From contig NC_057757.1 in NCBI RefSeq assembly GCF_004010195.1, positions 3,181,350 to 3,227,639 of the forward strand: a stretch of 46,290 bases of DNA, written 5' to 3'. Of the stretch, positions 6,147 through 42,113 are shown piece by piece (position 1 is the first letter of the stretch; every line of letters begins with the position of its first letter). The position numbers and the translations under genes were made by a program. Source of the DNA: Chiloscyllium plagiosum (lineage: Eukaryota). Under the pieces are notes generated by a model, which had not been told where the DNA came from, ran no database searches, and saw only the letters and a list, made by a program, of their open reading frames with translations.

Positions 6147-6193
6147 TAACGTGGAGGGGGACAAGGAAGGGGAAGTGTCCAGAGGCCAGGATT

Positions 6194-12622: not shown

Positions 12623-12784
12623 TGAAAATGTGTTGCTGGAAAGGCGCAGCAGGTCAGGCAGCATCGAAGGAACAGGAGAATCGACGTTTCGGGTATAAGC
12701 CCTTCTTCAGGAATCTTCGGGCTTATGCGCTTTTCCAGCAACACATTTTCAGCTCTGATCTCCAGCATCTGCAGTCCTCAATTT
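12623..12784. mobile_element. Penelope-like terminal-repeat insert, partly inverted
   Basis: GAAAATGTGTTGCTGGAAA...TTTCCAGCAACACATTTTC arms; possible low-complexity TSD CTCTCTTTGT (12613-12622, 12785-12794). Confidence 0.8.
12683..12710 (-). ncRNA. Minimal type I hammerhead ribozyme motif, intact core
   Basis: Minus strand reads CUGAAGA-A-GGG(CUUAUA)CCC-GAAA-CGUC. Confidence 0.7.
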
Positions 12785-13874
12785 CTCTCTTTGTGTCTCT
12801 CACCTGTTCTTTCTCATTTTGCCCATCTGTCTCTTTCCCTCTCTGTTCTTTCATTCTGACTCTGTCTCTCTGTCTCTGTGTCTGTCTCTGTTTCTTTCTC
12901 CCTGTCTCTGTTTCTTTCTCCCTGTCTCTGTTTCTTCCAGAGCTCAGAGCTCATTCCCCAGCATCCCTGTGGCTGCTTTGACTTTCCATCTCTAGTAAAA
13001 CTCGCGGTTCCTCATTGTCCTTCTCTCTTTTTCTCTCTCTCTGTCTGTCTCTTTCACTCTGTCTCTCTCTCTGACTCACACTGCCAATCTCTCTGTTCCC
13101 TGCTTCTCTCAGTGTAGCCAATTCTCTCTGCCTCAATCTCTTGATATTTCTTTCTCTGTCTTTTACTTTGTGTCTATCTCTCACTTTCTATCTGCCTCAC
13201 TTTACCATTCTTGCCCTTCTATCTCAGTCATTATCTTCACCTCACTGTACTTTCCTCTCCATATCTCTCTTTCTTTCTGTCAGTTTCTATTTTCTCTCTC
13301 TTCAAGCATCTGTTTCTCTCTCTTTCTCCATTTCCTCTGAGCTTCTCAATGCACCCTTCACTCTTTCTCTCCCTCTGCTACTTTCTGTATGTCCCTGTCC
13401 ATTTCTCACTGTCTCACTTTCTCCCGCACACGTAAAATGTATGAGCTATACTCATATGAATATTCAAAGATAGAACTTTGACCCACATAGGTTGGAAATA
13501 CTTACATTTATTTTTGTGTTGACAATCCAGTTTGATAGTCCCCAGCTTCTGTTATAATCTCCTGTTCTGTAGTGGATGCACTGACCCCAATAGTTTCCTG
13601 TAATTGACCTTAATTAAGACGGAGTAACTGTGCAAAGATCATTAATCTCTCAGTAGTGGGGTTATGACACAGAAGAAAATGAGGACAGTATAACTTAATT
13701 GCGGGTACTGGGTGTGAATATTCCCAGTTTAAGGGGTGGGGGAATGGACAGAACTGAATTGTACTGCTAGTCATAGATTGTTGCTGAACAATGGGAGCCA
13801 ACTATGCAATGAACATATAGGGTTAAGAATTAGTTAGTAACTGTCTTCAGGTTGTCAATGGGCGAAGGTGCAGG

Positions 13875-14365
13875 CCTCAGAATTCAGGATATTATTTAAT
13901 TGGAGAGAGTGCAGAAAAGATTGACAAGGGTGTTACAGCAATTGGAGGGCTTGAGTTATAAGGAGATGCTGGGACTTTTCTCCCTGGAGTGTAGGGGGTT
14001 GAGGGCTGACCTTAAAGGTTTATAAAAATCATAAGGGGCATGGATAGGGTGAATGGTAAAGGTCTTTTCCCCCTGAGTAGGGGAGCCTGAAACTAGAGGA
14101 CATGGCTTTAAGGTGGGGAGGGAAAGATTTAAAAGGGACATAAAGGGCAATTTTTTCACACAGAGGGTGGTTCATAAGTGTAATGAATGCCAGAGGAAGT
14201 GGTAGCTGCAGGAACAATTACATTTAAAAGACATTTGGATAGGTACATGAATAGGAAAGGTTTAGAAGGATGTGGACCAAACACAGGCAAATGGGACTAA
14301 TATGGTCAGAGTGGATGAATTGGGCCCAAGGGTCTGTTTCCATGCTGTATGACTCTATGACTCTA
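13875..14365 (+). mobile_element. CR1-type LINE 3' fragment
   Basis: LERVQKRLTRVL-like remnant, 3'UTR, GACTCTAT tail repeats. Confidence 0.85.
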
Positions 14366-14562
14366 TTGACTGAAGGACTGGTCATGTCTTTGACCAGAGA
14401 CTGCTACCTTGATCCAACTATTTCCTCAAGGTGGGGCTAACTCCGCAAGGGGAAGACTATCTCCTTGCTTTGAGGTACCTCCATGGGATGAGGCCTTTGA
14501 AATGAAATTCCGACCTTTTGATGATGCAATTCCCCTCCAACTGAGGCAGTTCGATTGAGATT

Positions 14563-15185
14563 AGAGTCATAGAGCTGTACAGCACAGAAACAGACCCTTT
14601 GGTCTAACTCATCCATGCTGACCAGAAATCCTAAATCAAAAGAATCCCATTTGTCAGCACTTGGCCCATATCCCTCAAAACCCTTCCTATTGATGTACTA
14701 TCCAGATGCCTTTAAATACTGTAATTGTACCAGCCTCCACCACTTATTCTGATAGCTCATTCCATATACAGACAGACTCTGCGTGAAAAAGCTACTCCTT
14801 ATGTCCCTTCTAAATCTTTACCCTGTCACCCTAAACCTGTGCCCCCTAGTTCTGGACTTCCCTATGCCAGGGGAAAGACCTTGTCTACTCATCTTGTCCA
14901 TGCCCCTCATGAATTTATAAACCTCTTTAAGGTCACCCCTCAGCATCCCATGCCTCAGGGAAAACAGCCGCAGCCTATTTAGCCTCTCCCTATAGCTCAA
15001 ACCCTCCAACCCTGGCAACATCCTTGTAAATCTTTCTCAACCCTTTCAAGATTCACAACATCCTTCCTGTCGGAGAGAGGCCAGAATTGCACACAATATT
15101 CCAAATGTAGCCTAACCAATGTCCTGTACAGCTGCAACATGACCTCCCAACTCATACACTCCATACTCTGACCAATAAAGGAAAA
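14563..15185 (-). mobile_element. CR1-type LINE 3' fragment
   Basis: ORFs 14818-15021 and 14997-15335 (LQLYRTLVRLHLEYCVQFW; LEGLSYRERLNRL). Confidence 0.9.
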
Positions 15186-15256
15186 CAGACTGACGTCTGT
15201 GAAGTTAAAGGATTTCCCTGAGGGTTGGAAGTGATGACTTGAGAAAGCATGACCTT

Positions 15257-15437
15257 TTGAGATGGTCCAGCACCATCGGAGATAGGACCTCGCTATTTGT
15301 GGTGGTACCTCATTGGTTGAGGTGATACTCACCATCTGAGGTTGTATCTCACTCTTTGAGCTTGTACATCACTGTCTGGGGGTGGCAGCCCATGGTCTGA
15401 GATGGCACATAATTATCTGAGGTGGTACATCACAGCA
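15257..15437. repeat. Degenerate ~20-bp tandem repeat (TGAGGTGGTACATCACTGTC-like), ~9 copies
   Basis: Recurrent TGAG(G/A)TGGTAC.TCAC at ~20-bp spacing. Confidence 0.6.
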
Positions 15438-16244
15438 TATGATCTTTTGCAGTTTCAGGCAAAATCCAAGCAGAAGCCCTTGGGATTGAACTGAACCCTC
15501 TGTTGATGCCCACTCTCCCCCTACCAATTCCCCCATCCTACCCTCTCCATTCCCTCAAATCTCGGTAGGCGCTGCGAAGAATGGGATGACCTTGAGGGCA
15601 TTGCGGAGGCAATATAAAGCCAAAATAAAGTATTGAGCCACAGCCAGTTCTCAAAAAGAAATATTTGAGGGCCTGCTACTGAGATCAAGTCAAACAGTAG
15701 CCCAGTGCTTGAGAGAAGCCTGCATTAATCAACGAGAGAATGTATTCGCAACTAGGTCACTGAGCGCAAAGATAAACTCACAACATGGCACAGGGGACCA
15801 GGGAAGCTTGCCAGCTCAAAGGAACATAACCAGCCCCTTCCATATTCAATTTGTGCCTCATTGACAAGTTGAACAGTAGAAGACAAATGAACAGAAGTAT
15901 ACAGACCTGTTTCCAGACAGTCATAAATCTCAGTGATGAGGCAGCTCCGACACCTCTTGGAGCAATGGTGGAACAAATAAATAATTTCCACTCTCACCAC
16001 CTCCCCCACCCCCTCCACCCCACCATTCCCAGAGATTTCTTCCGATTCATATCGCAGCCGGAGGCAGAGAATTAATCCCAAAGAAAGGCTCATAATCTAT
16101 CAGGTCCCAGTCCAAACCTTGCTACTAGGAAACTACAACTCAAACCTAATTGGAATCATTATACATTTAGCCCCGACTCTGCTGTCTACCCAGGTCATGA
16201 TCTTTCGGACTCAAGGTAATTTTTCTGCACTGTTCCCTTAATTC

Positions 16245-16563
16245 ATAGAATTCCTCCAGTGTGGAAAGAGTCATTCAGCCCATCGAGTCAACTCTAACCC
16301 TCCCACCCAAACCCACCACCCTACACTACAACCCTCCATTTCCCAAGGCTAATCCACCTAGCCTACATATCCCTGGACACTACAAGGGCAATTTAGCCTG
16401 GCCAATCCACTTGGCCTGCATAGCTTTAGACTGTGGGAGGGAACCCACACAGATACAGGGAGAATGTGCAAACTCCACACAGACAGCCCCCAAGGGGGGA
16501 ATTGAACCTGAGTTCCTGGCACTGTGAAGCAGCAGTACTAACCACTGAGCCACCATGCTGCCC
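16245..16563 (-). mobile_element. tRNA-derived SINE (HE1/V-SINE-like)
   Basis: Reverse complement of A/B boxes and core. Confidence 0.85.
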
Positions 16564-16786
16564 CACATGGCCTCTGCACACCATTTATATCTAGCAATCA
16601 GCCTATGTCATCTTGAATGCCTCAACTGAACCTGCCTTCTCATATACATTCAAGACTCTCACTGACAGACAGTAAAAGACTCATTGGGGATTCTTCATCA
16701 GCTTGAGCTAATTCAAACTTCTGCCAAGTCCAATTCTCCCACTGCACACCTGCCCTTTTACCCACTGCCTGACTGCTCAATAACCT

Positions 16787-17025
16787 ATCTCAGTAGCAGG
16801 CCCTCAAATATTTCTTTTTGAGAACTGGTTGTGGCTCAATACTTTATTTTGGCTTTATATTGCCTCCGCAATGCCCTCAAGATCATCCCATTCTTTGCAG
16901 CGCCTACCGAGATTTGAGGGAATGGAGAGGGTAGGATGGGGGAATTGGTAGGGGGAGAGTGGGCATCAACAGAGGGTTCAGTTCAATCCCAAGGGCTTCT
17001 GCTTGGATTTTGCCTGAAACTGCAA
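16787..17025 (-). repeat. Inverted copy of 15447-15685 (239 bp)
   Basis: Base-by-base reverse complement with three mismatches seen. Confidence 0.95.
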
Positions 17026-17297
17026 GCTGATGAAGAATCCCCAATGAGTCTTTTACTGTCTGTCAGTGAGAGTCTTGAATGTATGTGAGAAGGCAGGTTC
17101 AGTTGAGGCATTCAAGATGACATAGGCTGATTGCTAGATATAAATGGTGTGCAGAGGCCATGTGGGGCAGCATGGTGGCTCAGTGGTTAGTACTGCTGCT
17201 TCACAGTGCCAGGAACTCAGGTTCAATTCCCCCCTTGGGGGCTGTCTGTGTGGAGTTTGCACATTCTCCCTGTATCTGTGTGGGTTCCCTCCCACAG
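17023..17297 (-). repeat. Inverted copy of 16431-16705 (275 bp, includes SINE head)
   Basis: Base-by-base reverse complement with one mismatch seen; overlaps the previous segment by CAA. Confidence 0.95.
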
Positions 17298-18251
17298 GTT
17301 ATTAACTTGTATCGCATGATATAGAACATTGTGCAATGTATTTACGATACAGAAATTCCTCTCTATTTTCAACCTAATCTGTGCTACATAAAGTTTGGTA
17401 CCGCCAGCTGGTTTTGGGACTGGAGAACTTGTACTTTTGTGTCAATAAGCAATTGCCCAGTTGAGATGACCAGAAGACAGAGGAGCAGAAGTGGGCTATC
17501 AGCCCATCAAGCCCACTCTGATATTAAATGAGGATCATGGCTGATCTATTTATCCTCAGCTCCACTTTCCTGCCTTTCCCCTTGGCTCACCTTCCTGATT
17601 AAAAATACCTCTCTCTCTCAGCCTTGTATATCCTTATTGACACAGCCTCATCTTATCTTCCCTTCATTGCTCACACCTTTGAGTACAGGAGTTGGGAGGT
17701 CATGTGATGAGGTTCTACAGCACGTTGGTGAGGCCTCTTCTGGAGTACTGTGCATTAAGTTCTGGTCACCCTGGTATGGGAAGGATATTTTTGGGCTGGA
17801 CAGAGTTCAGAGGATATTTACCAGGGCGTTGACGGGAATGGAGAGTTTGAGTTTTATGGATAGGCTGGGACTTCTTTCTCTGGAGCATGGGAGGTTGAGG
17901 GGTGATCTTACAGAGATTTATAAAATCATGAGGGGCATAGATAAGGTGAATGGCAGGTGTCTTTTCCCTCTGGTGGGGGTGGGGGTGGGATGGGGTTCAA
18001 GACTAGGTTACATTTCTAGGGTGAAAGGAGAAAGATTTCTTTTTTAAATGAGGGGCAATTGTTTTTAAACAGTAGTTCGTGTGTGTAATGAACATCTAGA
18101 GGAAGTGGTGAATGAGGGTACAGTTACAAGGTTTAAAATACATTTGGATACATACATGAATAGGAATGATTTGGAGGGATATGGGCCAAGCGCAGGCAGT
18201 GGGACTACCTTGGTTTGGGATTATGCTCAGCATGGACTGGTTGGACCAAAG

Positions 18252-18697
18252 AGGTAAAAACAATGACTGCAGATGCTGGAAACCAGATTCTGGATTAGTG
18301 GTGCTGGAAGAGCACAGCAGTTCAGGCAGCATCTGAGGACAGGCAAAATCGACGTTTCGGGCCAAAGCCCTTCATCAGGAATAAAGGCAGAGAGCCTGAA
18401 GCATGGAGAGATAAGCTAGAGGAGGGTGGGGGTGGGGAAAGAGTAGCATAGAGTACAATAGGTCAGTGGGGGAGGAGATGAAGGTGATAGGTCAGGGAGG
18501 AGAGGGTGGAGTGGATAGGTGGAAAAGGAGCTGGGCAGGTCGGACAAGTCCGGACAAGTCAAGGGGACAGTGTTGAGCTGGAGGTTAGGACATTGTTGAA
18601 GAGCTTCAGGGCAGAGGAAATGACCTGGGAGTTGCAGTGGGAGAGAGACTCCCTGAGATTCTTGTAGAGAGAGGAGGAAAACTTCAAACTTCTTCAA
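18252..18697 (-). mobile_element. Penelope-like insert (terminal repeat plus internal piece) in a CR1 3' end; 13-bp TSD
   Basis: GGTTGGACCAAAG at 18239-18251 and 18698-18710; insert absent from the paralogous copy at ~32.1 kb. Confidence 0.85.
18351..18378 (-). ncRNA. Minimal type I hammerhead ribozyme motif, intact core
   Basis: Minus strand reads CUGAUGA-A-GGGC(UUUG)GCCC-GAAA-CGUC. Confidence 0.75.
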
Positions 18698-19553
18698 GGT
18701 TGGACCAAAGGGTCTGTTTCTGTGCTGTATGACTCTATGAGCTCTTTACCCAACATGCATCAAATTAGAAATTCTCACCCCATTTTCAAATGCATTCCAA
18801 TTTTAACTCCTTTGCCAAGGCCTGGCCCTCAGCTCTGCCCAAGACACAACAGTCTTCACCCACTTCATTAATGACCTTCCGTCCATTGCAAGGTTATTGA
18901 TGATTGCATAATGTTCAGCACCATTACTGCCTCCTCAGACACTGAAGTGTTGATGTGCAATAAATTCTGGAAACCTTTCAGGCTTGGAATAAAGAGTGAC
19001 ACTTGACATTCATGGCAACTAAGACCCAGGCAGTAAACATTCCCAAAAAACAGAAAGTCTTAACTATTGCCCCTTGACATTTAGTGGCATTCCCATCACT
19101 GGAGTGTTCTGGATTATTGCTTATCCATGGAAGTGGAGAGTATTTCATTAGACTTGTGCCTTGTAGATTGTGGACAATGCATTAAATAGTACCACTGTTT
19201 TTAACTATCTCCAGAATTGATTGCTGCCTAGAGTTGTTGACAACTTCACACAGAAAGTGTGGGACTGGAGTTATGTGGAGGCTCAAACTAGGCATCTTTT
19301 AAAAAATTCATTAATGGGATGTGTGTGTCGCTAGCTAGGCTGAATTTATTGCCCTGAAGAATGTGATGGCATGCTTGAACTACTTCAGTCCTCGAGCTGT
19401 AGAACCACCTGCACTGTTGTTAAAACCTAAAGCAGGGCAGAAACAGCATGATTGTTCAGAGATGGCGTAGTAGTCCAGGCAGGAGATCACTGAGAGCCAT
19501 GTTAGGGAGGTTGCACAAGTGAAGTGTTAAGGCTTGAGAGTGTGTTTCATCAA

Positions 19554-20065
19554 ACAGTGTAGAGAGAGCTTTACTGTACATCTAATCCTGTGCTGTCCCT
19601 GTCCTGGGAGTGTTTGATGGGGGACAGTATAGAGAGGGCTTGACTCTGTATCCAACTCCATTCTGTCCCAGTCCTGGGAGTGTTTGATAGGGGACAGTAT
19701 AGAGGCAGCTTTACTCTGTATCTAACCCTGTGCTGTCCCTCTCCTGGGAGTGTTTGATGGGGGGACAGTGTAGATGGAGATTTACTTTGTATCTAATCCT
19801 GTGCTGTTCCAGTCCTGGGGAATGTTTGATGGGGGACAGTGTAGAGGAAGCTTTACTCTCTATCTAACCCTGTGCTGTCCCAGTCCTGGGAGTGTCTGAT
19901 GGGGGACAGTACAGAGGGAGCTGTACTTTGTATCTAACCCCATGCTGAACTTGTCCTGGGAGTGTTTGATGGGGGACAATGTAGAGATAGCTTTACTCTG
20001 CAATTTTGTGCTGTCCCTGTTCTGGGGAGTGTTGGCTGACTCAGGCTAGAGGGAGCTTTGTACTC
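19554..20065. repeat. Minisatellite, 70-71-bp unit, ~7 copies
   Basis: ACA(G/A)T anchors at 19554, 19624, 19694, 19765, 19836, 19906, 19976; unit ...GAGCTTTACTCTGTATCTAACCCTGTGCTGTCCC.GTCCTGGGAGTGTTTGATGGGGG. Confidence 0.95.
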
Positions 20066-20534
20066 AGTATTGCATTCAGAAACATTTATTATACATTGTG
20101 CCAATATTCATCCATTCTCCAAGTATCTAATTACTGTCTGCTGGTGTCAAATGCAGAGTTCATTAGATCAGTAACCTGTTGTGAGTCTTTGATTTGACTT
20201 TGCAGAGGAAGTGGATGATGAAACATTTGTATCACTGTGAATTCAGATTGGCTGTAACGTCCTGGTGGTGTTTGTGACTTTAGATTAAGGAGTGACTCAC
20301 AGAAATGAATGAGCTGCAGTTCCCTCGTATTGTAGCTTGTCTATCTCAAAGCTGACACCACACTTACTCCAATTCAACTCTTGATCTTTGTCTGGTTCGA
20401 ATGTGTCTCAGTTGGAATGTATTGTTTCCAAGTTTTGCCTGTGTGCAGTCAGTCCCACTGTAGGAGTTCTTTCACTTCATATCAAAGATTCCATAGAATC
20501 TGAATTCATTGCACAGCAGGTAAATATTTGGGAG

Positions 20535-21440
20535 AAACTGGCATCACCATTTTCTCCCCATAGCCTTGTGTCAATCCCAAGCTAATTCCAATCCCCGTTC
20601 TATCTCCACTCCCCTGTATCAACCCTCAAACCATTCCCACTGTCCTGTGCTCTCCCCACAGCCTGAGTCAATCCCAAATTAATTACACTGCCCCACTCTA
20701 TCTCCATCCCCCTGTATCAATCCTCAAACTAACCCCACTGCCCCACTCTCTCCCCATAGCCCTGGATTAATCTCCAAACTAATCCCACTAACCCATTCAG
20801 TCCCCCTTGCCCTGTGTCAATCCCACTGACCCACTGTCTCCCCACAACCCTGTATCAATCCCAAACTAATCCCACTGCCCTGCTCTAACCCTACTGTCCC
20901 CTGTATCAATTTCCAAACTAATCCTACTGCCCCGCTCTATCCCCATTGTCCTGTATCAATTCCCAAATTAATCCTATTGCCTCATTCAGTCCCTGTTCCC
21001 TAGATCAATCCCTAAATCAATCCCACTGTTACCCCCCAGCCCTGTATCAATCCCCAAACTAATCCCACTGTCCCACTCTTTCTTCATTGTCCTGTATCAA
21101 TTTCCAAACTAATTCCACTGTCCCACTTTCTTCATTGTCCTGTATCAATTTCCAAACTAATCTCACTGCCCCATTCTCTCCCCATAGCTCTGTATCAATC
21201 CCAAACTACTCCCACTGCCCTGCGCTATCCCCATTGCCTTTTGTCAATCCTAAACCAATCCCACTGCCTGCTCCCTCCCCATGGCCCTGTATCAATCCCA
21301 AACTACTCCTACAGCCTTGCTCCATCCCCATGGCCCTGTGTCATTCACAAACCAATCCCACTGCCCGGTCCCTCCCTGTGGCTCTATATCAATCCCAAAC
21401 TAACCCCTGCTGTCTCCTCCATATCAATTTTAAACCAATT
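20535..21440. repeat. Minisatellite, ~49-50-bp C-rich unit, ~18 copies
   Basis: CCTGTATCAATCCCAAACTAATCCCACTGCCCC... recurring mostly every 48-51 bp. Confidence 0.92.
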
Positions 21441-21917
21441 TAAAGTTGCTACAATCCCAAAGATATTGGGTGGGGTCAATCAATCTTGAATGAGAGAGCA
21501 GTTAAATATGCAACATGGTGACCTCATCCAGATCATACCACAGTTACGGTCAGCGGCATATGGTTGCTGAACAACTCTCAACAAGTCTTGTCACATGGGT
21601 CCCCTGCTCATGAATACCGATCTGGTGAAAATTTGGTTGAAAATCTAACCATGTTGGTCACTGAAGAGCTGAAGGTGAGCCAGGAGAAGCCTAAAGGGAG
21701 AACGATTGATATATTAGACTGAGGAACATGGGCCTTTCATCTCAGAACTGAGGGCATTCAGTGGGGAAGTTTATAAAGATTAAATATTATCGGAAAGATA
21801 AATGTGGGGGATTTATTTTCAGTTAATCTGTGAGGGTAGAATAAAGGACACAAGATCTAATCAACAGTAAAGAAAATTTAACATATCTAGCAGGAAATCT
21901 TTCTCTGTCCAGAGAGA

Positions 21918-22250
21918 GGTGGCTCAGCAGTTAGCACTGCTGCCTCACAGCACAGGGACCCAGGTTCAATTCCACTCTCAAGCTGTGTGGAGTTTGCACA
22001 TTCTCCCTGTATCTGTATGGGTTTCCTCCAGGTGCTCTGGTTTCCTCCCTCAGATCAAAGATGTGCAGGTCGGGGGGATTGGCCATGCCTAAATTGCCCA
22101 ATAGCATCCAGAGATGTGCAGGCTGAGTGGGTTGGCCATAGGAAATGCAGGGATAGGGTGGGGAGATGGGTCTGGGTGTCATGATCTTTGGTGGATTGAT
22201 GTGGACTCGATGGGCCAAATGGCCTGCTTCCACACTGCAGAGATTCTAGA
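21918..22250 (+). mobile_element. tRNA-derived SINE (HE1/V-SINE-like)
   Basis: A/B boxes, core and tail. Confidence 0.85.
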
Positions 22251-23069
22251 ACTAGATTGATGTTAAAAATTGGAATAAAGACACTCAATGCAGACATGCA
22301 AAGCTTAAATCCACTTGTATATTGGAATATGCAAGGCCTTTGACAATTCTGTGCTTCTTGAAATTCACTGATGCCATCAATGAGACACAAAGCAGGTCAT
22401 CTTATCATGACCTCATTGCGAATTGTGCGATCTTGCTGTACACAAAATGGCAGCTGCATATATATGACAACAGTGATGTCGCTTCATGTGGGTGAAAGGT
22501 TATTGGGGTAGATGGGAATATGAGGCAATGAGATCTTATTGAATGGTGGGGCAGGCTTGAGGGGCTGAGTGGCCTACTCCTAAACCCTATGCCCATTCAT
22601 TTCAGTGTGCATTGGGTTGACCTGAAAATATGAAAGCTGCTACAGAAATGCAGCATTTATGCTTGTTGTAAGCATATTTTTTACATGTAGGTGGCGCTTA
22701 ATCAACACAATACAGTAGAAGGTAATTTTGAACTTGAGGACCTCACTGAAAAGAGAAGACATCTTGCCATCTGGAACTATCATCAGGACAAATGCACGAA
22801 TGTCAAATTCTAGACGGTTCCAATTTATACCACAGAAGGGAGCTGATTGGTTGGCAAGTTGACTCTGATTTGCCACATTGTTGCTATGGTGAAGGCAATG
22901 TGGAGCTATAGGCTTTCGTAATTTGGCTGTTGGAAATTTGGCATCATTGGATTTGTCCTGATGAAGGCTCAACAAGAAAGTTTGGCAACATGTCTATATT
23001 TTCAACAATGTTGAAAATGCTCTTTAATATCATGATAGACCTCATCCAAAAAAAAAGGTTATCTAAGTG

Positions 23070-24355: not shown

Positions 24356-24413
24356 TCTGGATAAAATTGAGTTCTTTTGTTCTGTCATAACTTTCTGAGG
24401 CTTTTTGTGTCAG

Positions 24414-25395: not shown

Positions 25396-25401
25396 AATAA
25401 A
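25396..25401 (+). promoter_or_regulatory. Candidate polyadenylation signal for LRRC55 (another AATAAA at 25884-25889)
   Basis: First AATAAA seen after the stop codon in repeat-poor sequence. Confidence 0.4.
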
Positions 25402-26232: not shown

Positions 26233-27091
26233 AGGCTGGTTAATATGTCCACTATGGAACCAGGTCACTCAGCATCCTGGAGCAATTTGCCTTTAGGTAG
26301 CAGCAGTTTTTATGAGGAGAATGTTCCCTAGCCAATTCATGGGGAGGGGGCATTTGTCAGGTGAAGAATCGCATGCAAGCAAGTTTGGGGCGGTAGCAGA
26401 GGTGAACAAAGGAGTAACTTTTAAGCAGCATCTTACCAGAGCAGAGAGAGAGATGGCAATGCTGAGAGAGGGAATTCTTTCGGACTCCAGGCAGCTGAAA
26501 GGACGGGTGCCCCAAAGGTGTGACTAAAATTGGGGCTATTTCGGCAGTCAAAATTGTAGTTTACTCTCCTGATCAGTTATACGCTCGGCAGACCTCTGAC
26601 GTCTTCAAGTAAGGCTGGAATTTATTGTGTGACTTCTGATGCCCAAATCATGGAAAGGATTAAGAGCCACCCTAAGGTGACCTTCCTTTGAAGGTTGTTA
26701 GAAAACTATTCAGTGTTTGCAGCAATTTCTGGTGGTGATATCAAGGTTCCAGATTTATTGGACTGTGTCCAGTAGCAGAATCAGGACTCGTGCCCTGTAG
26801 GTGCCATCAGTTCAGCCCAGCCTTATCCACACGTAATAATTTGTTGCTTGAAAACTATACCGTAGTTTATCGAAAGGCCTCTCATTGCTCTTTGACCTCA
26901 TTCAGTTTATCTATCTAAATGGCCTTTGAGCCATTTATACTATTTAAACACCCTTTCACTCCCATTCAGATGATTTGCCTTTGCTTTTATATTCATTCTT
27001 GGGATGTGTGCATTGCTGGCTGGGCCAGCATTTATTGCATGTACCTAAATATCCTTGAGAAGGTGATGGTGGGGGGGGAGTGGATGTGGTG

Positions 27092-27180
27092 GAAATGTGT
27101 TGCTGGAGAAGCGCAGCAGGTCAGGCAGCATCTAGGGAACAGGAGAATCGACGTTTCGGGCATTAGCCCTTCTTCAGGAA
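27092..27180 (-). mobile_element. 89-bp Penelope-like mini-insert; 10-bp TSD
   Basis: GGATGTGGTG at 27082-27091 and 27181-27190. Confidence 0.85.
27150..27177 (-). ncRNA. Minimal type I hammerhead ribozyme motif, intact core
   Basis: Minus strand reads CUGAAGA-A-GGGC(UAAU)GCCC-GAAA-CGUC. Confidence 0.75.
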
Positions 27181-31339: not shown

Positions 31340-31722
31340 TAGACCTAGAGATGTAGGTACAGAGTTCCTTGAAAGGGGCATCACAGGTCGACAGGCTGTT
31401 GAAGAAAACTTTTGGAACACTTGTTTTCATCGGTCAGAGAATTGAGTATAGGATTTGGGATATAATGTTACAGCTGTACAAGACATTGGTAAGGCCACAT
31501 TTGGAGTACTGCATACAATTCTGGTCACCTTGCTATAGGAAGGACATTATTAAACTGGAAAGAGTGCAGAAAATATTTACCAGGATGTTACCAAAACTGG
31601 AGGAATTCAGGTATAAGGACAGGCTGGATAGGGCCAGGATCTTGTTTCATTCTGGAGCAGAGGAGGTTGAGGGGTCCCTGGTGCTGTGAGGCAGCAGTGC
31701 TAACCACTGAGCCACCATACCA
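31340..31722. mobile_element. CR1 RT fragment (+, to ~31672) fused to a SINE head (-)
   Basis: ORF 31369-31689 LQLYKTLVRPHLEYCIQFWSPCYRKDIIKLERVQ; then CTGTGAGGCAGCAGTGCTAACCACTGAGCCACC. Confidence 0.85.
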
Positions 31723-32050
31723 CCCATGTCTCACTCCTTCTTCATCTGCCCCAAAATATCCTTCTACTCTTCTGCCCTCATATGTTGAGCTAGTATTGCT
31801 GTTATTCATCTCAACTGATGCCTCTGGTAGTGGATTCCAAGTGCTCACTACCCTTTGGGGATTAGTGATTGGCAAACATATGGTTCCTCCATTCTGGGCT
31901 TACCCATATTGTCTCTTTGTCAACCTTATCAAACCCTCCCATGTTCCTAAGACCTCAAATGGTCACCTCTTAGCCTCTCTTCAAAATGAAAAGACCCTCC
32001 AGCCTGTTCAGATCTTCCTAATTATGATTTTACAGTTCAGGTAGAGAACA

Positions 32051-33162
32051 GAGTTATAGAGTCATACAACACAGAAACAGAAGCTTCGGTCCAAACTGTC
32101 CATGCTGAACATAATCCCAAACTAAAGTAGTCCCATTGCCTGCACTTGTCCCATATCCCTCCAACCCTTCCTATTCATGTATATATCCAAATGTCTTTTA
32201 AATATTGTAACTGCACCGCCATTCACCAATTCCTCACCACACGAACCATTGTTTAAACAATTGCCCCATATTTAAAAAAAAATCTTTCTTTCACCCTAAA
32301 AATGTGACCTAGTCTTGAAAATCCCCACCCGAGGGAAAAGACACCTGTCATTCACCTTATCTATGCCCCACGTAATTTTATAAATATCTGTAAGATCACC
32401 CCTCAACCTCCTGTGCTCCAGTGAAAGAAGTCCCAGCCTATCCATAAAACTCAAATTCTCCATTCCTGGCAACATGGAACATAGAAAAGTACAGCACACA
32501 ACAGGCCCTTTGGCCCACGATGTTGTGCCGAGATTTAATCCTAATGTAAAATATAGTAACTTAACCTACGCTTCCCTCAACTCACTGCTATCCATGTGCA
32601 TATCCAGCAGTCACTTTAACGTCCCCAATGATTCTGCAACATCACGGTAAATCTCTTCTGAACTCTGTCTAGCATAATAATAACTTTTCTATAACAGGAT
32701 GACCAGAATTTAGTGCATAGTACTCTAGAAGAAGCCTCATCATCCTGTAGAACCTCAACACACGACGTCCCAACTCCTGTACTCAAAAGGTCTGAACAAT
32801 GAAGGGAAAATGAGATGAGGCTGGATCAATAAGGATATACAAGGCTGAGAGAGACAGATTTTTTTTAATCAGGAAGGGGAGTTAAGGGGAAAGACAGGAA
32901 AGTGGAGCTGAGGATTAGTAGATCAGCCATGATCATCATATCAGAGTGGATTCGATGGGCTGAATGGCCCACTTCTGCTCCTCTGTCTTCTGGTCATCTC
33001 AACTGTGCAATTGTTTATTGACATGAAAGTACAAATACTCCTGTCCCAAAACAAACCGAAGGTACCAAACTTCATGTAGCACAGATTAGATTGAAAATAG
33101 GAGAATTTCTGTATCATAAATACATTGCACAATGTTCTATATCATGTGATATACATTAATAA
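32051..33162 (-). repeat. Copy 2 of the old inverted duplication, carrying its own 160-bp LINE-tail insert (32476-32635, TSD GCAACAT)
   Basis: Reverse complement of 17298-18742; GCAACAT at 32469-32475 and 32636-32642. Confidence 0.9.
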
Positions 33163-36100
33163 TCTAGCTTCAGAGTTTCATATGTGTTTAGATGGCATGA
33201 TTATTGGCACAACTTCATTCAAGGGATGGAAACACTGAATGAACTCTGCTTCCTCCTAATCCGTATGTCAGTCAATAAATTGGTGATTCCCGGTTTTATT
33301 TCAGGGGTCTCCAAATCTGTGAACAATGGCAAAGCACGCAGTCTCCTGGGTGAGCCAGTATAATTTCTTCAGCCACTGCAGTGAGTGGAGGCTAGCTGAA
33401 TGATGTTACATAAAGCGCGTGATTTCCAAATCTCTTCAAGACGTGATGGGCAGGGAAGAAATTACTCAATCATTGCTGTCCTGACTGAGACTAGATTTGT
33501 GATGCTCAATGCACTCTTTTCAAGACCCATACATCAATGCAGCTGTCAATATATATCAGCTGGTCCCAGGGATATGCTTTCCGGTGACAGACCCCCGCCT
33601 GATCCTGCTAAAACAAGTCAATGTGATTCACTCACAAAATACTAATAACTCGTTCAGGATCTGCAAGTGTAGAGTGCAACATCTTTACAAATGTCTATGC
33701 ACTTAAAGCCCCATTGTGTCTTTGAATAGGCTCTATCCATGGGTGATAGAAGGTCTGCAATATTTGGGGCAGAGCTATCCACAAAGTCATTGTTCTATTC
33801 AGTTACAGTTGCTTTTGACATAGATCACTAGCACCAACCCCTCTCTGTCCAACAGACCATCCCTTTCATTTGGAAAGTTAGCCAAATACATTTCAGATTT
33901 TTGTTTTCAGTGTATAAACATTGGCATCATCTTGTGGGTCTTTTTCACGCTGCCATTTCCATGTAATTAACTTGTAAATAAATCTCATGGTTTTTGCCTG
34001 AAAATAATGTGCGTGATGTTGCCACCAGATGTAAACCAGATAGGGGCAGATGTTATGGCCTTTGCTGAGGAGTCCCACTGAGGCCAGTCTTCATCAAGAG
34101 AATTCACACCACACTATTCTCATTCCCATCACTGTATGAGATGATGAAGTTTCTCCTGATTTCCCCATCGGGATTCTTGGTGACAATGTTACAAAGATGG
34201 CCTTTGGATCTTCTCTTCCTTACTGTAGGACACATCTCTGCATTCAGTCAATTCCAAACTGGGGCTTTCTAACCTTTTCAAACGGGTGGGAGCACATTTT
34301 AGTTTATTTCTCACTCGATGGGGGGCAGGAGGGAAGGAGAGGTGGTGTGCAAATTTCACACATCCCCCTCTATCCCTCCCCCCCCCCCCCCCCCCCTTAG
34401 AATTGGTGGCCCAATCCTCACTTCCCATTCTACCCAACATGAACTAACTCTTCTGTTCTAGTCCCCCAGCATCTTTGAAGATTTTGTTTAAAACAATCAA
34501 AAACAGCCGGGGAATTGGCAGTGTCCTTACCTCTGAGCCAGGAGACCTGAGTTCAAGACCCACCTAATCAAGGAGGTGCATAATAGCATTTCTGAACAGG
34601 TTGATTAGAAAATAAAAAGGTGCATTAGGAGATCTTTCAGTCCTCGAATTGCTCCTCTCCATCTGGATCATACCCCGTTCCAATTTAAAGCCCTTTCGTC
34701 AAGCAATTGATGTTGAGGCATTTTAGACAGCAAGGTGGTGCTGATTGGTTCGATGATCGTTGACATGGGAGATGCAACAAGAGCAGTTAACTGTCAATCT
34801 TCACTCACAGTTGGTAAGCAGATTCTGATTTGTCATGGTGCTGCCAAGGGCATGCAGCAGAGGGCTTTCAGAAAAGGTGCACCGTATGCTTATATTTAGC
34901 TTCCTGCACGCGCAAATGCATCACTCTACAAACCTAGCTGATTTGACATTTGTTTCTGTTGTAAACCTTAGCAGAGTCTGGATTGTTTAATAAATGATAC
35001 ACAATCACAGATTCACATCAAATGTGGAACCTTCTTCAAGTCTGTTTCTTGTGTTGCAGCTCTGATGAGTACAAGATAAAAAGCTTCTTGTCTCCTTTTT
35101 ATGACAAATTCTGTACTAACGAGCATTTAATTTTGTTATTAACACATCACCATCAATTCTTTCCCGTTCCATTTCTTCTCATGGCTGATCATCCAATTCA
35201 GTTCCACGTTCCTGCTTTCTCCTCCATGCCCTTTCATCCCTTTAGCCCTACGAACTACTGTATATTCTCAAAGTAAAATCTGAAAAATTTGATTTTTATG
35301 TAAGGTTACATTTATGGGGTTGACCACTACATGGATACTACTTCTGAGGGAATGAAATTCACGCTACTGTCCAAAATACCGTATCCTGAGCAAAAGCCTT
35401 CCTTCTGCCGATTTCTGATTACAAACTGGCAAAACTGTAATATCTTACCTTCTAGCTCAGCAGGCAGCTTTTCTGCGAGCTTAGTTCTCTGCCGAAGTGT
35501 TAAGTTATGCCTTCTGATGTGTTGTGGTCTCTGCTGAGCAGTACTATTGAAGCCTGCCTTCATCGAAGGAATTCACAGCACGCTGTTCCTGTCTGGATAC
35601 TATCCCATTCTGTTCACTTCAGTTCAGAGGAGAGTAGACCTGCACTCTTCAGAACAGCATAGAAACAGGCCATACGGCCCAACTAATTCATCCCATCTAA
35701 TTCTACCTTCCTAACCCTCGACTCGTTTCACCCTCACGTGCCAGTCGGTTTTCCCAGAAAACGCATACAGACGTTTTCCTTCCATCACTTCCGTGGGAAC
35801 CTTGTGAACCATCCAGACCTTGCCTTAAAATCTGAAATTCCATCCTTCTTTCATTCGTTTCATGCTTGGATTCAGATGGCTTCACAACTAACATTTTCCA
35901 TTTTAATGATTTTCAAGGATCCACTCTAACTTTTTTCTCCAACTGTGGCCGCTTGAGAGGTTTATCTCTGTTGGCACACTTGTGTTTTAGTATTTTCTGA
36001 AGTTGGTTCGATATCAGTCTTCAGCCTAACCATTAACCTCAACTAGGTATAGGACTGTATTCCATGAATGCTACGGGGAACCTGAGCTCAGCTGAACTGC

Positions 36101-36269
36101 AGACAAACGGAGGTTGTCACCTGATTCTGACTTGATGCAGCTTGAACTTTTGTCAAATTGGTATGAATTATACATAAAAACATACACAATAGCACAAAAA
36201 CATTAATTTCCTGATCATAACACTTATGTACAGGATAATACCTTGACTCACAAATGTTGATCTGTTATC

Positions 36270-36385
36270 CATGAAGAACTAGGGTTGACTTTTACAAAGG
36301 ATATGTGGAAAATTCCAGACTTTTTGGCCAAAAATAGGGTTGACTTTTACATGAGATCGACTTTTACTGGAGTATACACTATATA
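36270..36385. mobile_element. Possible decayed Tc1/mariner-superfamily (Tc2-like) DNA transposon end
   Basis: Three GGTTGACTTTTAC/ATCGACTTTTAC subterminal repeats ending GAGTATACAC; family call is from recalled consensus only. Confidence 0.35.
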
Positions 36386-36394
36386 TCTACTTAA

Positions 36395-36655
36395 GAGTCA
36401 TGGAGTCATAGAGATGTACAGCATGGAAACAGACACTTTGGTCCAACTCGTCCATGCCAACCAGACATCCCAACCCAATCTAGTCTCACCTGCCAGCACC
36501 TGGCCCATATCCCACCAAACCCTTCCTAATCAAATACCCATCCAGATGCCTTTTAAATGTTGCAATTGTACCAGCCTCCACCACTTCCTCTGGCAGCTCA
36601 TTCCATACATGTACCACCCTCTGCGTGAAAAATTTGCCCCTTAGGTCTCTTTTAT
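36395..36655 (-). mobile_element. CR1-type LINE 3' end
   Basis: KRDLRGKFFTQRVVHVWNELPEEVVEAG remnant and tail. Confidence 0.85.
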
Positions 36656-36798
36656 CCAAAACAATGCAATAGCATATAAAACAGCAATTGCTGCTCCAGG
36701 AATTCGAGGAAATCACCTCCAACACCTAAAATACCTCTTTAAAAAAAAAGGAACAGCTGTTACAGCCAGAAGTTTTTCCCGTCCTCCATCTTGCTTCT

Positions 36799-37918
36799 TA
36801 GAACATAGAACATAGAACAATACAGCACAGAACAGGCCCTTCGGCCCACGATGTTGTGCCGAACTTCTAACCTAGATTAAGTACCCATCCATGTACCTAT
36901 CCAAATGCCGCTTAAAGGTCGCCAATGATTCCGACTCCACCACTCCCACGGGCAGCGCATTCCATGCCCCCACCACTCTCTGGGTAAAGAACCCACCCCT
37001 GACATCTCCCCTATACCTTCCACCCTTCACCTTAAATTTATGTCCCCTTGTAACACTCTGTTGTACCTGGGGAAAAAGTTTCTGACTGTCTACTCTATCT
37101 ATTCCTCTGATCATCTTATAAACCCCTATCAAGTCACCCCTCATCCTTCGCCGTTCCAACGAGAAAAGGCCGAGAACTCTCAACCTATCCTCGTACGACT
37201 TCCTCTCCATTCCAGGCAACATCCTGGTAAATCTTCTCTGCACCCTCTCCAAAGCTTCCACATCTTTCCTAAAGTGAGGCGACCAGAACTCCACACAGTA
37301 CTCCAAATGTGGCCTAAACAAAGTCCTGTACAGTTGCAACATCAATTCACGACTCTTGAATTCAATCCCTCTGCTAATGAACGATAATACTCCATAGGCC
37401 TTCTTACAAACTCTATCCACCTGAGTGGCAACCTTCAAAGATCTATGTACATAGACCCCAAGATCCCTCTGTTCCTCCACCTGACTAAGAACCCTACCAT
37501 TAACCCTGAATTCCGCATTCTTATTTGTTCTTCCAAAATGGACAACCTCACACATGGCAGGGTTGAACTCCATCTGCCACTCCTCAGCCCAGCTCTGCAT
37601 CATATCTAAGTCCCTCTGCAGCCGACAACAGCCCTCCTCACTGTCCACAACTCCACCTATCTTCGTATCATCTGCAAATTTACTGACCCACCCTTCGACT
37701 CCCTCATCTAAGTCATTAATAAAAATTACAAACAGCAGAGGACCCAAAACTGATCCCTGCGGAACTCCACTTGTAACTGGGCTCCAGGCTGAATATTTAC
37801 CATCTACCACCACTCTCTGACTTCGACCGGTTAGCCAGTTTTCGATCCAATTGGCCAAATTTCCCTCTATCCCATGCCTCCTGACTTTCCGCATAAGATC
37901 CTGACTTTCCGCATAAGA
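36799..37918 (-). mobile_element. Young 5'-truncated CR1-type LINE with uninterrupted reverse-transcriptase C-terminal frame
   Basis: GVPQGSVLGPLLF, FADD motif, RPHLEYCVEFWSP; (TAGAACA)3 tail at 36799-36820; 20-bp tandem duplication at the truncation point. Confidence 0.97.
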
Positions 37919-38049
37919 AAGCATTCCCTCACACAGTGAGGGAATGCTGTCGTTTTTTGTGCACAGCACGTTCCCACATGGGGAGGGAATGCTGTAGTAG
38001 TTTGTGCACAGCATGATCCCACAGTGAGGGAATGGTGTAGTAGCTTGTA

Positions 38050-38345
38050 GAAAGGAGCAGATATGTTGGCAAATCACAGAGAGGTGTGAGAGGAATAGGG
38101 TTATATTATTGGGGAATTTCAACTTCTCTAGCATGAACTGGGATTGCCTTTGTGTGAATGGTAGAAATTTTAAAGTCCATCCAGGAGAGCTTTTGGTGCC
38201 AGTACATAGGTAGTCCCCCTAAACGTGGGCAGTGCTGGACTCAATCCTTAGTAATGAAGCCGGTCAAATGGTTGAAGAGTCAGTGGGTGAGCATTTTGGA
38301 GATAGTGAACATAACTCCGTAAGTTTCATTAATTATTATGGAAAA
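38050..38345 (+). mobile_element. Decayed LINE AP-endonuclease fragment
   Basis: VILLGNFNFSSMNW (GDFN-type motif) and downstream GDS(D)HN-like sequence. Confidence 0.7.
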
Positions 38346-38509
38346 GAGTAACGGTCATCCCCATCTCCATTATACTCACCACTTGACAAATCCGTACATG
38401 GCACGATGGCTCCTCAAAAACTGGGAGAGGAACCAAGGACCAAGGACGCTGGTTCTGTGCTGAGGCTCACCCACAACTTGAAAAGCAGGACAAGCTCTAC
38501 AAAACTGCA

Positions 38510-38960
38510 TCACATCCCTATCCAATCATTCAATGTTTTGGTCTCAATCACTTTGTGTGGCAGAGAATTCCACAGGCTCCCCACTCTCTGGGTGAAGACA
38601 TTCCTCCTCATCTCAGTCCTACCCGGTCTCCTTTCGACTGTGACTCCCTGGTTCTGGACTCTCTGGTCATCGGGAACATCCTTCATCCGTTTACCCCTGT
38701 CTCCTCCTGTTAGAATATTATGGGTTTCTATGAGATTCCCTCTTCATTCTTCGAAACTCCAGCAAATATAATCCTAACCGATCTCAATCTCTCTCTTCAT
38801 TCACCTGTCCTGCCATCCCAGGAATCATCTGGTATACCTTTCATTTCACTCTCTCTATAGACAGAGATATCTTCCTCAGATAAAGAGGCCACAACTACAC
38901 ACAGTATTCCAGGTGAGGTCTCACCAAAGCCCTGTACAATTCCAACAATATATGCCTGTT
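38510..38960 (-). mobile_element. Decayed CR1-type LINE fragment
   Basis: Similarity to 10750-11180. Confidence 0.75.
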
Positions 38961-39564
38961 ACTGTATCGATAATATAATGATAGCCCCTTCAGAAACTGC
39001 TTTGCTGACACCAAAGCATTTGGGGATGTCCTGAAGTCATAACAGGTGTTGAAAGGAACATGACATTTAAACATTAATCTTCTCCTTTCAGTCCTCTGCT
39101 AAGGAACAGGAGCCAAAGTTTTATCCAGTGAGTGTTACCAGTGGCCTAATTGCTAAAAGGTATCCCTGTGGTCCCTTAGCCTTGGCCAGGTCAACAGTCT
39201 TTCTTCAGCTTGTCATTAAAGATCCTCTGGGATCTCAAGAGGAGCTTATTAATTAGAGTTTGGGAATGCCAGGATATCAATAACTCACTTTAACTTCTCA
39301 TTAGAGGTTTGAGCAAACGTTACCAAGTAACAAAGGCCTGTCAATTAATTACCGCTCATATTAATGAGAAAATCAAATGCGGATTGCCTCTGGAAATAGT
39401 GACCCACTGGCGATTGCACAACCCATACACACAACTAATCCGGTGCTGATACACAATAAAATGTGTTCGGGTTGAGTAATGGCATTTACACAGATGAAAA
39501 CCTCATCCCTTTTTAAAAAAAAATGATGTTGGGGGGTGGGTGTTTCCCATGAGCCTCTCAGATC

Positions 39565-41350
39565 ATGCAGACCAGATATCCTTTATAGATCTCGTCCCAT
39601 TTGCCAGGATTTGGCCCACATCCATCTAAAACCCTTTGTATACATATATCCATCTGAATGCCTTTAAAATGTTGTATTCATACCAGCTTCTACCACTTCC
39701 TCTGGCAGCTTACTCCATGCATGCGCCACCCTCGGCGTGAAAAAGGTGCCCCTTAGATCCCTTTTAAAGTGCTCCCCTCTCACTTTCAACCTATACCATC
39801 TAGGTTTGCACTTCCCTTTCGCCAGGGAAGACACCTTGTCTATTTATCTAACCATGCCCCTCATGATTTTATAAACCTTATAAGGTCACCCCTCAGTCTC
39901 CTACACTTCCGGGAAAACAGCCCTGGTCTATTCAGCCCCTCCCTATAGCTCAAAACCTCCAACTCTGGCTATTTCCTTGTAAATCTTTTCTGTACCTTTC
40001 CAAGTTTCACAGCATCCTTCCTGCAGCAGGAGGATCAGAATAGCCCATATTATTACAAAAGTAGCCAAACCACTATCCTCTACAACCACAACATGACCAC
40101 CCAACTCTTATACTCAATGTACTGACCAATTAAGGCCAGCATACTAAATGCCTTCTTCATTATCCAGCCTACCTGAGGCTCCACATTCGAGGAATTATGA
40201 ACCTGCACTCCAAGGTCTCTTTGCTCAGCAACACTCCCCGGGACCTTAACGTTAAGTGTAAGTCCTGCTCTGAAACTCCATCTGCCACTTCTCAGCCCAT
40301 TAGCCTATCTGATCGAAAACCCACAGTTGTCGAAGGTAACCTTCTTCGCTGTCCACTACACCACGGATTTTGGTGTCATCTGCAAACTTAATAACCATAC
40401 TTCCTATGTTCACATGCAAATCATTTATATAAATGATGAAACACAGTGGACTCAGCACTGATCCTTGAGGCACACTGGTCAGTCCTCCATTCTGAAAAGC
40501 AATCCTCCGTCACCACATACTGTGTTCTACCTTTGGACCAGCTTTTTATCCTAATGGCTTGTTCTCCCTGTATTACATGTGATTCAACATTGTTAACCAG
40601 TCGACCATGAGTAATCTTGTCAAAAGCGTTATTTTGTCCACACAGATCACATCCACTGCTCTGCCCTCATCAATCCTCTTCATTAGTTCTTCAGAAAACT
40701 CAATCAAGTTAGTGAGACAATTTCCCAGACACAGTCATGTTGACTTTCCCCAATCAGGCCTTGCCTTTCTAAGTACATGTAAATCCTTTCCCTCAGGATT
40801 CCCTCTAACAGCTTGCCCACCACCGATGTCAGGCTCACCCGGTCTATAGTTCCCTGGCTTTTAGAGGTTTATAAAATTATAAAGGGCATGGATAGAGTGC
40901 ATAGCAAAGTCTTTTTCCCAGGGTTGGGGAGGTCAAATCTACAGGGCAGAGGTTTGAGGTGAGAGGGGAAAGATTTAAAATGGATCTGCATTTCTCATGC
41001 AGAGGGTGGTGCGTGGATGGAATGAGCTGCGAAACAAAGTGGTGGAGGCTGGTACAATTACAACATTTGAGGCATCTGGATGGGTACATGAATAGGAAGG
41101 ATTTGGAGGGGTAAGGGCCAAATGCTGGCAAACTGGACTAGATCAATGTCTGGTCAGCATGGATAAGTTGGACCGAAGGGTCTGTTTTTCTGCTGTACAT
41201 CTCTGACTCATGACATTTCGATGGTACATGAATAGAAAATGCTTAGAGGGATATGGGCCAAAATCAGACAAACATGACTAGTTTAGTTTGGCACTATTGT
41301 CAGCAGGGACTGGATAGACCAAAGGGTCTGTTTCCATACTGCGGGACTCT
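39565..41350. mobile_element. Head-to-head CR1 pair: - copy (~39565-40860) and + copy (~40861-41350, duplicated tail)
   Basis: RT remnants and 3'UTRs pointing outward. Confidence 0.85.
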
Positions 41351-41519
41351 AAGAATGGTTGGACAGACAAAGGACTGGCTAAAAAGGTGATTAGCTATTA
41401 ATGGCGACTGTGGCTAAAAATCAATTGCGTAGTAGCAAACTGTGTGAAAACAAGGCCTACTGTGTGGGGTTTGGGACGTGGGAGAGCTCAAGTCCTCAAC
41501 TTATTGAACTCTCAGAATA

Positions 41520-41617
41520 TAGACATAAACAGAAGTTGCTGGAAAAGCTCAGCAGGTCTGGCAGCATCTGGCAAGAGAAATCTGAGCTAACGTTTCGGGT
41601 CCTGTGACCCTTCCTCA
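41520..41617 (-). mobile_element. Penelope-like terminal repeat whose hammerhead core is cut by an adjacent CR1 tail
   Basis: Minus strand (A)UGAGGA-A-GGGUC(ACAG)GACCC-GAAA-CGUUA; the first core C is lost at the junction. Confidence 0.7.
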
Positions 41618-42000
41618 TAGAACAGTACAGCACAGGAACTGCTCTTTGACCCACTATGTTGTGCTGAACATGACGCCAAATTAAACTAATTTCTTCTGCC
41701 TGCCCTTGGTCCATATCCCCCCATTCCTTGCATGTTCATGTGCTGATCTAAAAGTTCCTTAAACACCCCGATCATGTCTGCCTCCATCACCACGCCTGGC
41801 TGCATGATCCAGACTCCTCCCACACTCTAGGAGAAAGTGAGGACTGCACCAACCAACCCAACCACCCCGTGGCTCAACACTTCAACTTCCCCTCCCACTC
41901 CAACAAGGACATGCAGGTCCTTGGACTCCTCCATCGCCAGACCATAGCAACACAACGGCTGGAGGAACAGCGCCTCATCTTCCGCCTAGGAACCCTCCAA

Positions 42001-42070
42001 NNNNNNNNNNNNNNNNNNNNNNNNNNNNNNNNNNNNNNNNNNNNNNNNNNNNNNNNNNNNNNNNNNNNNN
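42001..42070. other. Assembly gap (70 N)
   Basis: Run of N. Confidence 1.
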
Positions 42071-42085
42071 ACACTCTCCTCATTC

Positions 42086-42113
42086 CTGAAGAAGGGTGCT
42101 TGCCCGAAACGTC
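42086..42113 (+). ncRNA. Minimal type I hammerhead ribozyme motif, intact core
   Basis: CUGAAGA-A-GGGU(GCUU)GCCC-GAAA-CGUC, same strand as the GIY-YIG frame. Confidence 0.75.

Follow-up and report, generated by a model that had tools for sequence, protein, structure and literature searches.

Target-site-bounded end-pieces of Penelope-like elements with minimal hammerhead ribozyme sequences in Chiloscyllium plagiosum: clustered breaks before the core and recurrent joints to the open reading frame start

We analysed a stretch of 46,290 nt of Chiloscyllium plagiosum DNA (contig NC_057757.1, positions 3,181,350 to 3,227,639; hereafter the window), in which a reading made from the sequence alone had noted dispersed minimal hammerhead ribozymes carried by tiny inserts derived from Penelope. 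We found seven inserts (A to G) in these 46 kb, with clean target-site duplications (TSDs) on six of the seven. With a probability of about 0.7, they are TSD-bounded end-pieces of endonuclease-bearing (EN+) Penelope-like elements (PLEs), likely short cDNAs made by the reverse transcriptase (RT)/GIY-YIG protein of the element, and not a separate family of mini-elements. Most of them break close to the first letter of the ribozyme core, C3, relative to which 5' positions are given below. The inserts, their parts and the four intact cores are listed here, with ORF for open reading frame and UTR for untranslated region.

7707..7907, both strands: insert A, two PLE ends inverted head to head; 17-bp TSD at 7690 and 7908
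7707-7823, minus, and 7823-7907, plus: arms of insert A; the minus arm breaks at -4 and the plus arm starts at U4, both cores decayed
12623..12784, both strands: insert B; minus arm 12623-12714 with intact core; 10-bp TSD at 12613 and 12785
12683..12710, minus: hammerhead core of insert B; stem II of 3 bp, fourth pair C.A
12726-12784, plus: plus arm of insert B, tail only
18252..18697, minus: insert C; ORF start, 3' UTR, hammerhead and long tail; 13-bp TSD at 18239 and 18698
18351..18378, minus: hammerhead core of insert C; 4-bp stem II
18383..18586, minus: 3' UTR of insert C, 5' of the hammerhead, so named from its position; high, even depth in both DNA runs
18587..18697, minus: ORF start of insert C; first ~35 PLE codons, joined directly to ~200 nt of 3' UTR
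27092..27180, minus: insert D, an 89-bp stub; 10-bp TSD at 27082 and 27181
27150..27177, minus: hammerhead core of insert D, inside the 89-bp stub
41528..41617, minus: insert E, a stub of another family with a 5-bp stem II and a GUU triplet, starting about U4
41829..42174, plus: insert F, a 5'-truncated PLE; GIY-YIG end, run of 70 N, hammerhead and short tail; 15-bp TSD at 41814 and 42175
41848..42000, plus: C-terminal 51 codons of GIY-YIG in insert F
42086..42113, plus: hammerhead core of insert F; stem II with a U-G fourth pair
42356..42726, both strands: insert G, in four pieces and of a further family; palindrome AGCU; 9-bp TSD at 42347 and 42727

Inserts A, B, C, D, F and G measure 201, 162, 446, 89, 346 and 371 bp and have TSDs of 17, 10, 13, 10, 15 and 9 bp respectively; no clean TSD could be seen for insert E. 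The sequence-only reading had spoken of inserts as short as 89 bp with TSDs of 10-17 bp. The smallest insert is indeed 89 bp (27092-27180), but the four inserts that it named are of 162, 446, 89 and 346 bp, only one of them being a plain stub, and their TSDs are of 10, 13, 10 and 15 bp; the 17-bp duplication belongs to the insert at 7707-7907, which had not been listed. The junction of insert B (12715-12725) is assembled from fragments of stem II, drawn from both strands, followed by a jump to the tail, which suggests several template switches within the hairpin. Insert G consists of a plus UTR piece, a minus arm (core 42478-42506, lacking G12), a plus arm that begins inside stem II and a degenerate plus copy; it has no ORF piece, and its PLE identity rests on motif and architecture. 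Insert C sits inside another repeat. We also observed that inserts C and E lie in the same abundant host repeat tail (18239-18251, 18698-18710 and 41500-41640). Some joints bypass insert C entirely; we did not take them as polymorphism, the simplest explanation being further copies of the target repeat.

That the host element is an EN+ PLE is supported by the protein-coding remnants. The GIY-YIG end in insert F is 86% identical to residues 306-356 of protein P0001 (tblastn E 6e-23), which is labelled Chiloscyllium punctatum, has relatives that carry RVT_1 and GIY-YIG, and holds a CxxC between thumb and EN, a feature described for Neptune and Nematis. Pfam gave no family for the 56-aa EN fragment, and none for P0001 at E<=0.001. 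The ORF-start piece of insert C is 94% identical to the N-terminus of P0080, also labelled Chiloscyllium punctatum, over 77% of a 43-aa query (E 2.6e-9), and the P0080 N-terminus in turn matches the full-length RT+EN protein P0020 (E 3e-19). With an N-terminal profile the same piece ranked 1 of 26,842 window frames; an initial N-terminal hidden Markov model had likewise ranked it 1 of 1,530, with E 0.26 and in the wrong register, and was not relied on. There was no significant match between P0080 and P0003, the latter being without the N-terminus, and a search of the window with 79 protein queries found no PLE RT fragment. Since its ORF-start codons are joined directly to 3' UTR, insert C is an internally deleted copy.

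To locate ribozyme cores, the pattern CTGANGAAGGG-N6-CCCGAAACGTCGA was scanned over the window and over 100 shuffles, giving four window matches against a shuffle mean of 0.00 (n=100). These are the four intact cores, which the sequence-only reading had placed correctly in both coordinates and strand. A looser generic core pattern gave six window matches against 0.74 expected, and a sensitive comparison found five further decayed or partial core-bearing arms. CUGANGA, GAAA and the NUH triplet are exact in the four cores, and the core boxes are decayed in both arms of A, in E and in the minus arm of G. We then tabulated the motif in nine rows, eight of them window arms and the ninth a metagenome locus, L001, used as outgroup only. 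An extra unpaired A follows A9 (between 9 and 10.1) in all nine rows, the G10.1-C11.1 pair is present in eight of nine, and palindromic ACGU or AGCU replaces stem III in eight of nine. Taken as sequences, the four motifs are thus supported as real minimal hammerhead ribozymes of the PLE type with a palindromic stem III; together with PLE protein pieces in two of the four named inserts, this bears out the PLE origin and the minimal type I hammerhead proposed earlier. None of the eight Rfam matches in the window at E<=1 is to a hammerhead family; the best match, MIR860 (42451-42553), scores 51 bits, below threshold, and is produced spuriously by inverted insert G. A search of viral contigs gave no match, and metagenomes gave one locus, L001, an unrelated, repeat-rich contig whose copy of this minimal core at 139-168 (minus) has five pairs in stem I and a different stem II, and is likely from a eukaryote PLE. 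A representative search gave 143 hits, which did not enter the analysis.

We used three runs mapped to copy C, the PLE copy of insert C, to assess variation, ends and joints: DNA runs X2 and X13, from two organisms (59,898 and 61,758 contigs), and RNA run X21 (1,771 reads); a fourth run, X22, contributed 0 reads. Stem I is as weak as had been noted, with 2 bp, then a U.U mismatch, then one pair, and secondary-structure prediction leaves it mostly unpaired (pair probability 0.02-0.06 in three of four copies), with 0.71-0.96 predicted for the formed pairs of stem II. The earlier view that stem II is kept while loops vary was overstated: the motif retains a stem II, but its fourth pair is broken (C.A) in the 12683 copy and is U-G in the 42086 copy. 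The loop variation is mostly point decay; the UUUG loop is private to the 18351 copy, and in each DNA run another letter accounts for 98% of the contig depth at 18363. The four intact cores show no compensatory changes among themselves, and it is only between families that stem I, stem II and the palindrome change with their pairing preserved. Covariation between families was 0.329, a value reached in 11 of 500 shuffles, for related sequences with one row misaligned; in that row, the minus arm of G, pairs were undercounted and we counted them by coordinate instead. Among the places listed for the mapped runs, the variable core places are N7 and two in the loop. CpG decay at G12 and in the palindrome is seen in the RNA-read loose-end consensus, as it is in both arms of A and the minus arm of G, and the four arms of equal length are 83-93% alike. 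The proposed activity of the population finds no support in these family copies, of which many lack catalytic letters at CpG sites. We infer that selection maintains the ribozyme motif in the source elements only and that dispersed copies decay neutrally.

The 3' ends of the inserts fall into two classes. Measured from the predicted cut in six arms they lie at +58, +58, +60, +61, +85 and +99, that is at +58-61 and +85-99 (insert D at +58, B at +60, F at +61 and C at +99), and in X13 93 contigs with long unlike flanks leave at +61. These two classes are the known PLE 'tail'. According to the part of Frangieh et al. 2024 (PMC11167929) consulted here, RT of the Poseidon element PAc of Anolis carolinensis starts internally at two sites 3' of the hammerhead ribozyme, with uncut RNA as the main template. 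PAc likewise has two 3' end classes 3' of the ribozyme, an uncut ribozyme copied to DNA and no RNA-seq ends at the cut; its ORF starts at stem II, whereas in insert C the ORF start is separate from ribozyme and tail (same part of that paper).

Because every copy spans the predicted cut uncut, we conclude that the ribozyme cut does not set the insert boundaries; no window arm starts or ends there. No pile of molecule ends was found at any place on the mapped copy C stretch, and RNA ends at the predicted cut, which the sequence-only reading had proposed to look for, formed no pile in X21, one polyA single-cell run with 95% read-through. We consider it very improbable that unit RNAs or circles, cut out by self-cleavage of the ribozymes as dimers, are the insert templates. 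Such a course would suit the retention of the core, the extra A, G10.1-C11.1 and the ACGU/AGCU palindromes across families, and dimers of a Schistosoma minimal hammerhead ribozyme (min-HHR) cleave weakly in vitro according to the consulted part of Cervera & de la Pena 2014 (PMC4209133). However, positions 18350 and 18351 are not among the loose-end places listed for any run (an indel would mask 5' starts of the other subfamily there), the active-dimer fold is predicted to lie 11-17 kcal/mol above the minimum free energy of the dimer in a secondary-structure model that cannot score the core, and cleavage is dispensable for PAc insertion in the consulted part of PMC11167929.

At the 5' side, five of the seven inserts break at -4, -4, -3, -1 and about +1 relative to C3. 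The breaks of inserts B and D, 4 and 3 nt before C3, agree with the earlier remark that the 12623 and 27092 copies end near the core. Under exponential truncation with a mean of 30-200 nt this clustering has P of 3e-3 to 5e-7, for a zone picked after seeing the data. Loose ends exactly at -4 (18382) are carried by 262 contigs in X13 (median 246 nt, agreement 0.33) and by 280 reads in X21 (agreement 0.49), and no other upstream place is among the six loose-end places listed for each run. An initiator-like sequence, which we take to have the form YYANWYY, fits weakly at -4 in C and F and not evidently in E or G. A cap signature was also considered: a non-native C after -4 on the cDNA strand is present in copy B and in one joint, and absent from the loose-end majority, and we make no claim of it. 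The open literature, supplements aside, yielded no published description of either the 5' clustering or a strong-stop origin.

The course of events that we favour would run as follows. The PLE protein would nick the target DNA, and reverse transcription would start internally on the RNA, either ~60 or 85-100 nt 3' of the cut site. RT would copy through the uncut ribozyme and would often halt ~4 nt before CUGA, the most likely cause being that template RNA from the upstream terminal repeat begins there, an attribution to which we give somewhat less than an even chance. The stub would then be joined to the target (inserts D and E), or RT would switch template to give head-to-head inversions (A, B and G), or would jump to the ORF start (insert C). 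Where RT starts in the downstream repeat, ordinary 5'-truncated copies would result (insert F). We predict that most of the dispersed solo copies have no activity and that they decay at CpG sites. A more speculative extension, which we rate as doubtful, is that transcripts of shark-type PLEs start where the front edge of the ribozyme lies; internal initiation in the upstream repeat would then yield a short run-off cDNA like retroviral strong-stop DNA, to be integrated directly or to jump to a second template. In Penelope and Chlamys-3, the two characterised PLEs, the transcription start site (TSS) lies inside the pseudo-long terminal repeat (pLTR).

The 5' clustering might instead be set by structure or protein, with RT stalling or switching at the ribozyme fold or at bound PLE protein, or with the endonuclease trimming cDNA at ATT. 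This would fit the junctions in A, B and G, which start or switch inside stem II, and the breaks at one and the same point of the structure in three families whose upstream letters differ; PAc, moreover, helps the ribozyme to fold and cleaves at ATT within its own pLTR (PMC11167929, consulted part). The peak, however, lies just beyond the whole fold, where the weak stem I gives little to stall on, and the breaks of E and G are not at ATT. We regard a stop of this kind as possible, with odds well below even.

Several points weigh against the reading of the inserts as cDNAs that stop at an RNA start. No full-length PLE lies inside the window, only fragments (the EN end in F and the ORF start in C). 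Position 18382 is not among the six loose-end places listed for X2 (lowest listed 158), and part of its signal comes from another subfamily reading into its own UTR, about 4-9% in X13 and 33-37% in X21 by a rough agreement model. The depth of the copy C subfamily after the cut and in the UTR is 1.6M versus 1.7-1.9M in X2 and 1.4M versus 1.4-2.8M in X13; as there is no fall from one into the other, many copies of this subfamily must run on upstream. X21 is a polyA library of unknown strand rule, ill suited to showing cut ends, and its ratio of plus to minus reads drifts from 0.74 to 1.43 across the cut site. Finally, the front edge of the D. virilis ribozyme is an intron end ~120 nt after the TSS, not the TSS itself (PMC4209133, consulted part). 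As a separate observation, X21 reads over the UTR at 18426-18551 are 2-5 times more numerous in one orientation (about 10 versus 33, small numbers), those over the core being balanced.

It can also be seen in the mapped runs that many different joints lead from the UTR, or from -4/-3, into the ORF-start piece. Those from -4/-3 itself are 18381-18616 in X2 and 18382-18605 in X13, and all of the joints listed land at 18587-18630. Four of the 15 joints listed have identical coordinates in both organisms (18449-18623, 18454-18599, 18499-18598 and 18521-18614), with summed depths of 9-188 versus 17-18 for long single contigs in X13. The sides of the joints are 20-27 nt, the sequence between them is marked as not known for most, and joints beyond the ORF-start piece are invisible in this mapping. 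Repeated joints of the ribozyme end to the ORF start, four of them common to two organisms, are what this analysis adds; they probably reflect recurrent template jumps, some of them re-copied as small non-autonomous forms.

The recurrence of these forms bears on whether the stubs are a self-propagating non-autonomous family, SINE-like (short interspersed element) or retrozyme-like, whose own transcripts the PLE protein would re-copy in trans. The sharp 5' boundary would be expected of such a family, the deleted forms with identical joints in both DNA runs suggest some re-copying, and non-autonomous PLE derivatives are known. Nevertheless we consider this unlikely: ORF pieces lie inside two of the four named inserts, insert sizes and layouts all differ, none of the 38 tandem-repeat rows in the window overlaps a hammerhead copy, three or four sequence families share the same break, and X21 reads come from both orientations with 95% continuing into unlike flanks. 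The content of the element retained varies between inserts, from none to 3' UTR, GIY-YIG end or ORF start. Because these amounts differ and the two 3' end classes are shared, the inserts would be mostly short RT products of ordinary PLEs and not one family; of the mini-element population proposed earlier, what stands is that some internally deleted forms recur in two organisms.

The motif and its host class are already known (Cervera 2014; Frangieh 2024). In the consulted part of PMC4209133, min-HHRs occurring solo or on opposite strands are taken to be truncated PLEs, most copies being solo with some opposite-strand pairs, as here, and known in fish, coelacanth and Xenopus. The PLE motif described there likewise has the core, the extra nucleotide between 9 and 10.1, G10.1-C11.1 and a palindromic 15.2-16.2; helix I is 4-5 bp in Schistosoma and 2 bp in D. 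virilis, and the copies described here differ in a stem II of 4-5 bp with a stem I of only 2-3 bp. That part mentions neither sharks nor 5'-end clustering at the core, and its supplement may list shark motifs. EN+ PLE features found in the window are an ORF with RT and C-terminal GIY-YIG upstream of the terminal repeat (as fragments), TSDs, a tail and inverted truncated copies. Head-to-head inversions, TSDs (here 9-17 bp), an optional tail (30-40 bp) and internally deleted derivatives are likewise described for EN+ PLE insertions in the consulted parts of Arkhipova 2013 (PMC3846280) and Craig 2021 (PMC8557442), from which the present units differ in being 89-450 bp, dense (7 per 46 kb) and marked by recurrent ORF-start joints. 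Non-LTR retrozymes (Cervera & de la Pena 2020, PMC7229834; Li et al. bioRxiv 10.64898/2026.07.22.740005; consulted parts) share the type I hammerhead, PLE kinship and dispersed monomers. Monomeric circular RNA is a further mark of retrozymes. There are, in contrast to retrozymes, no head-to-tail tandem units in the window, and the motif is minimal, not canonical. The consulted part of Li et al. surveys one cartilaginous fish, and its supplement may list shark motifs.

Other features of the window were also noted. An open frame at 6092-6943 (plus) has a signal-like start and LRRNT and LRR_8 repeats (Pfam E 2e-24) and is likely an exon of a gene for a small leucine-rich repeat (LRR) membrane protein; inserts A-G may lie in an intron of the LRR gene or downstream of it. 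A 448-codon open RT fragment at 36872-38218 (minus; RVT_1 E 3e-16) has many related fragments across the window and is presumably of a CR1/L2-type long interspersed element. Two adjacent near-perfect inverted duplications (15447-15685 / 16787-17025, 98.7%, and 16431-16705 / 17023-17297, 99.6%) are either a recent rearrangement or an assembly artefact, and a long 20/41-bp minisatellite with about 212 copies of the 20-mer occupies 1-4300.

The value of these inserts lies in their junction statistics, which bear on how PLE pLTRs, inversions and solo ribozymes arise, questions that, like the role of the ribozyme, are still open according to the consulted parts of PMC8557442 and PMC11167929. Copies of this kind are taken for microRNA hairpins, as in the Rfam MIR860 match, and escape the hammerhead models of Rfam. 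The fixed stop 4 nt before the core and the jumps to the ORF start give direct predictions for 5'-end sequencing and for the in vitro PLE assay already available. If the strong-stop reading is true, direct integration of strong-stop DNA would explain why solo minimal hammerheads are in such huge excess in animal genomes, and jumps landing within the first ~110 nt of the ORF would have founded small non-autonomous families, composed of ORF start, UTR, ribozyme and tail, that are shared across species. Pseudo-LTRs, inverted copies and solo ribozymes would then have a one-step, testable origin.

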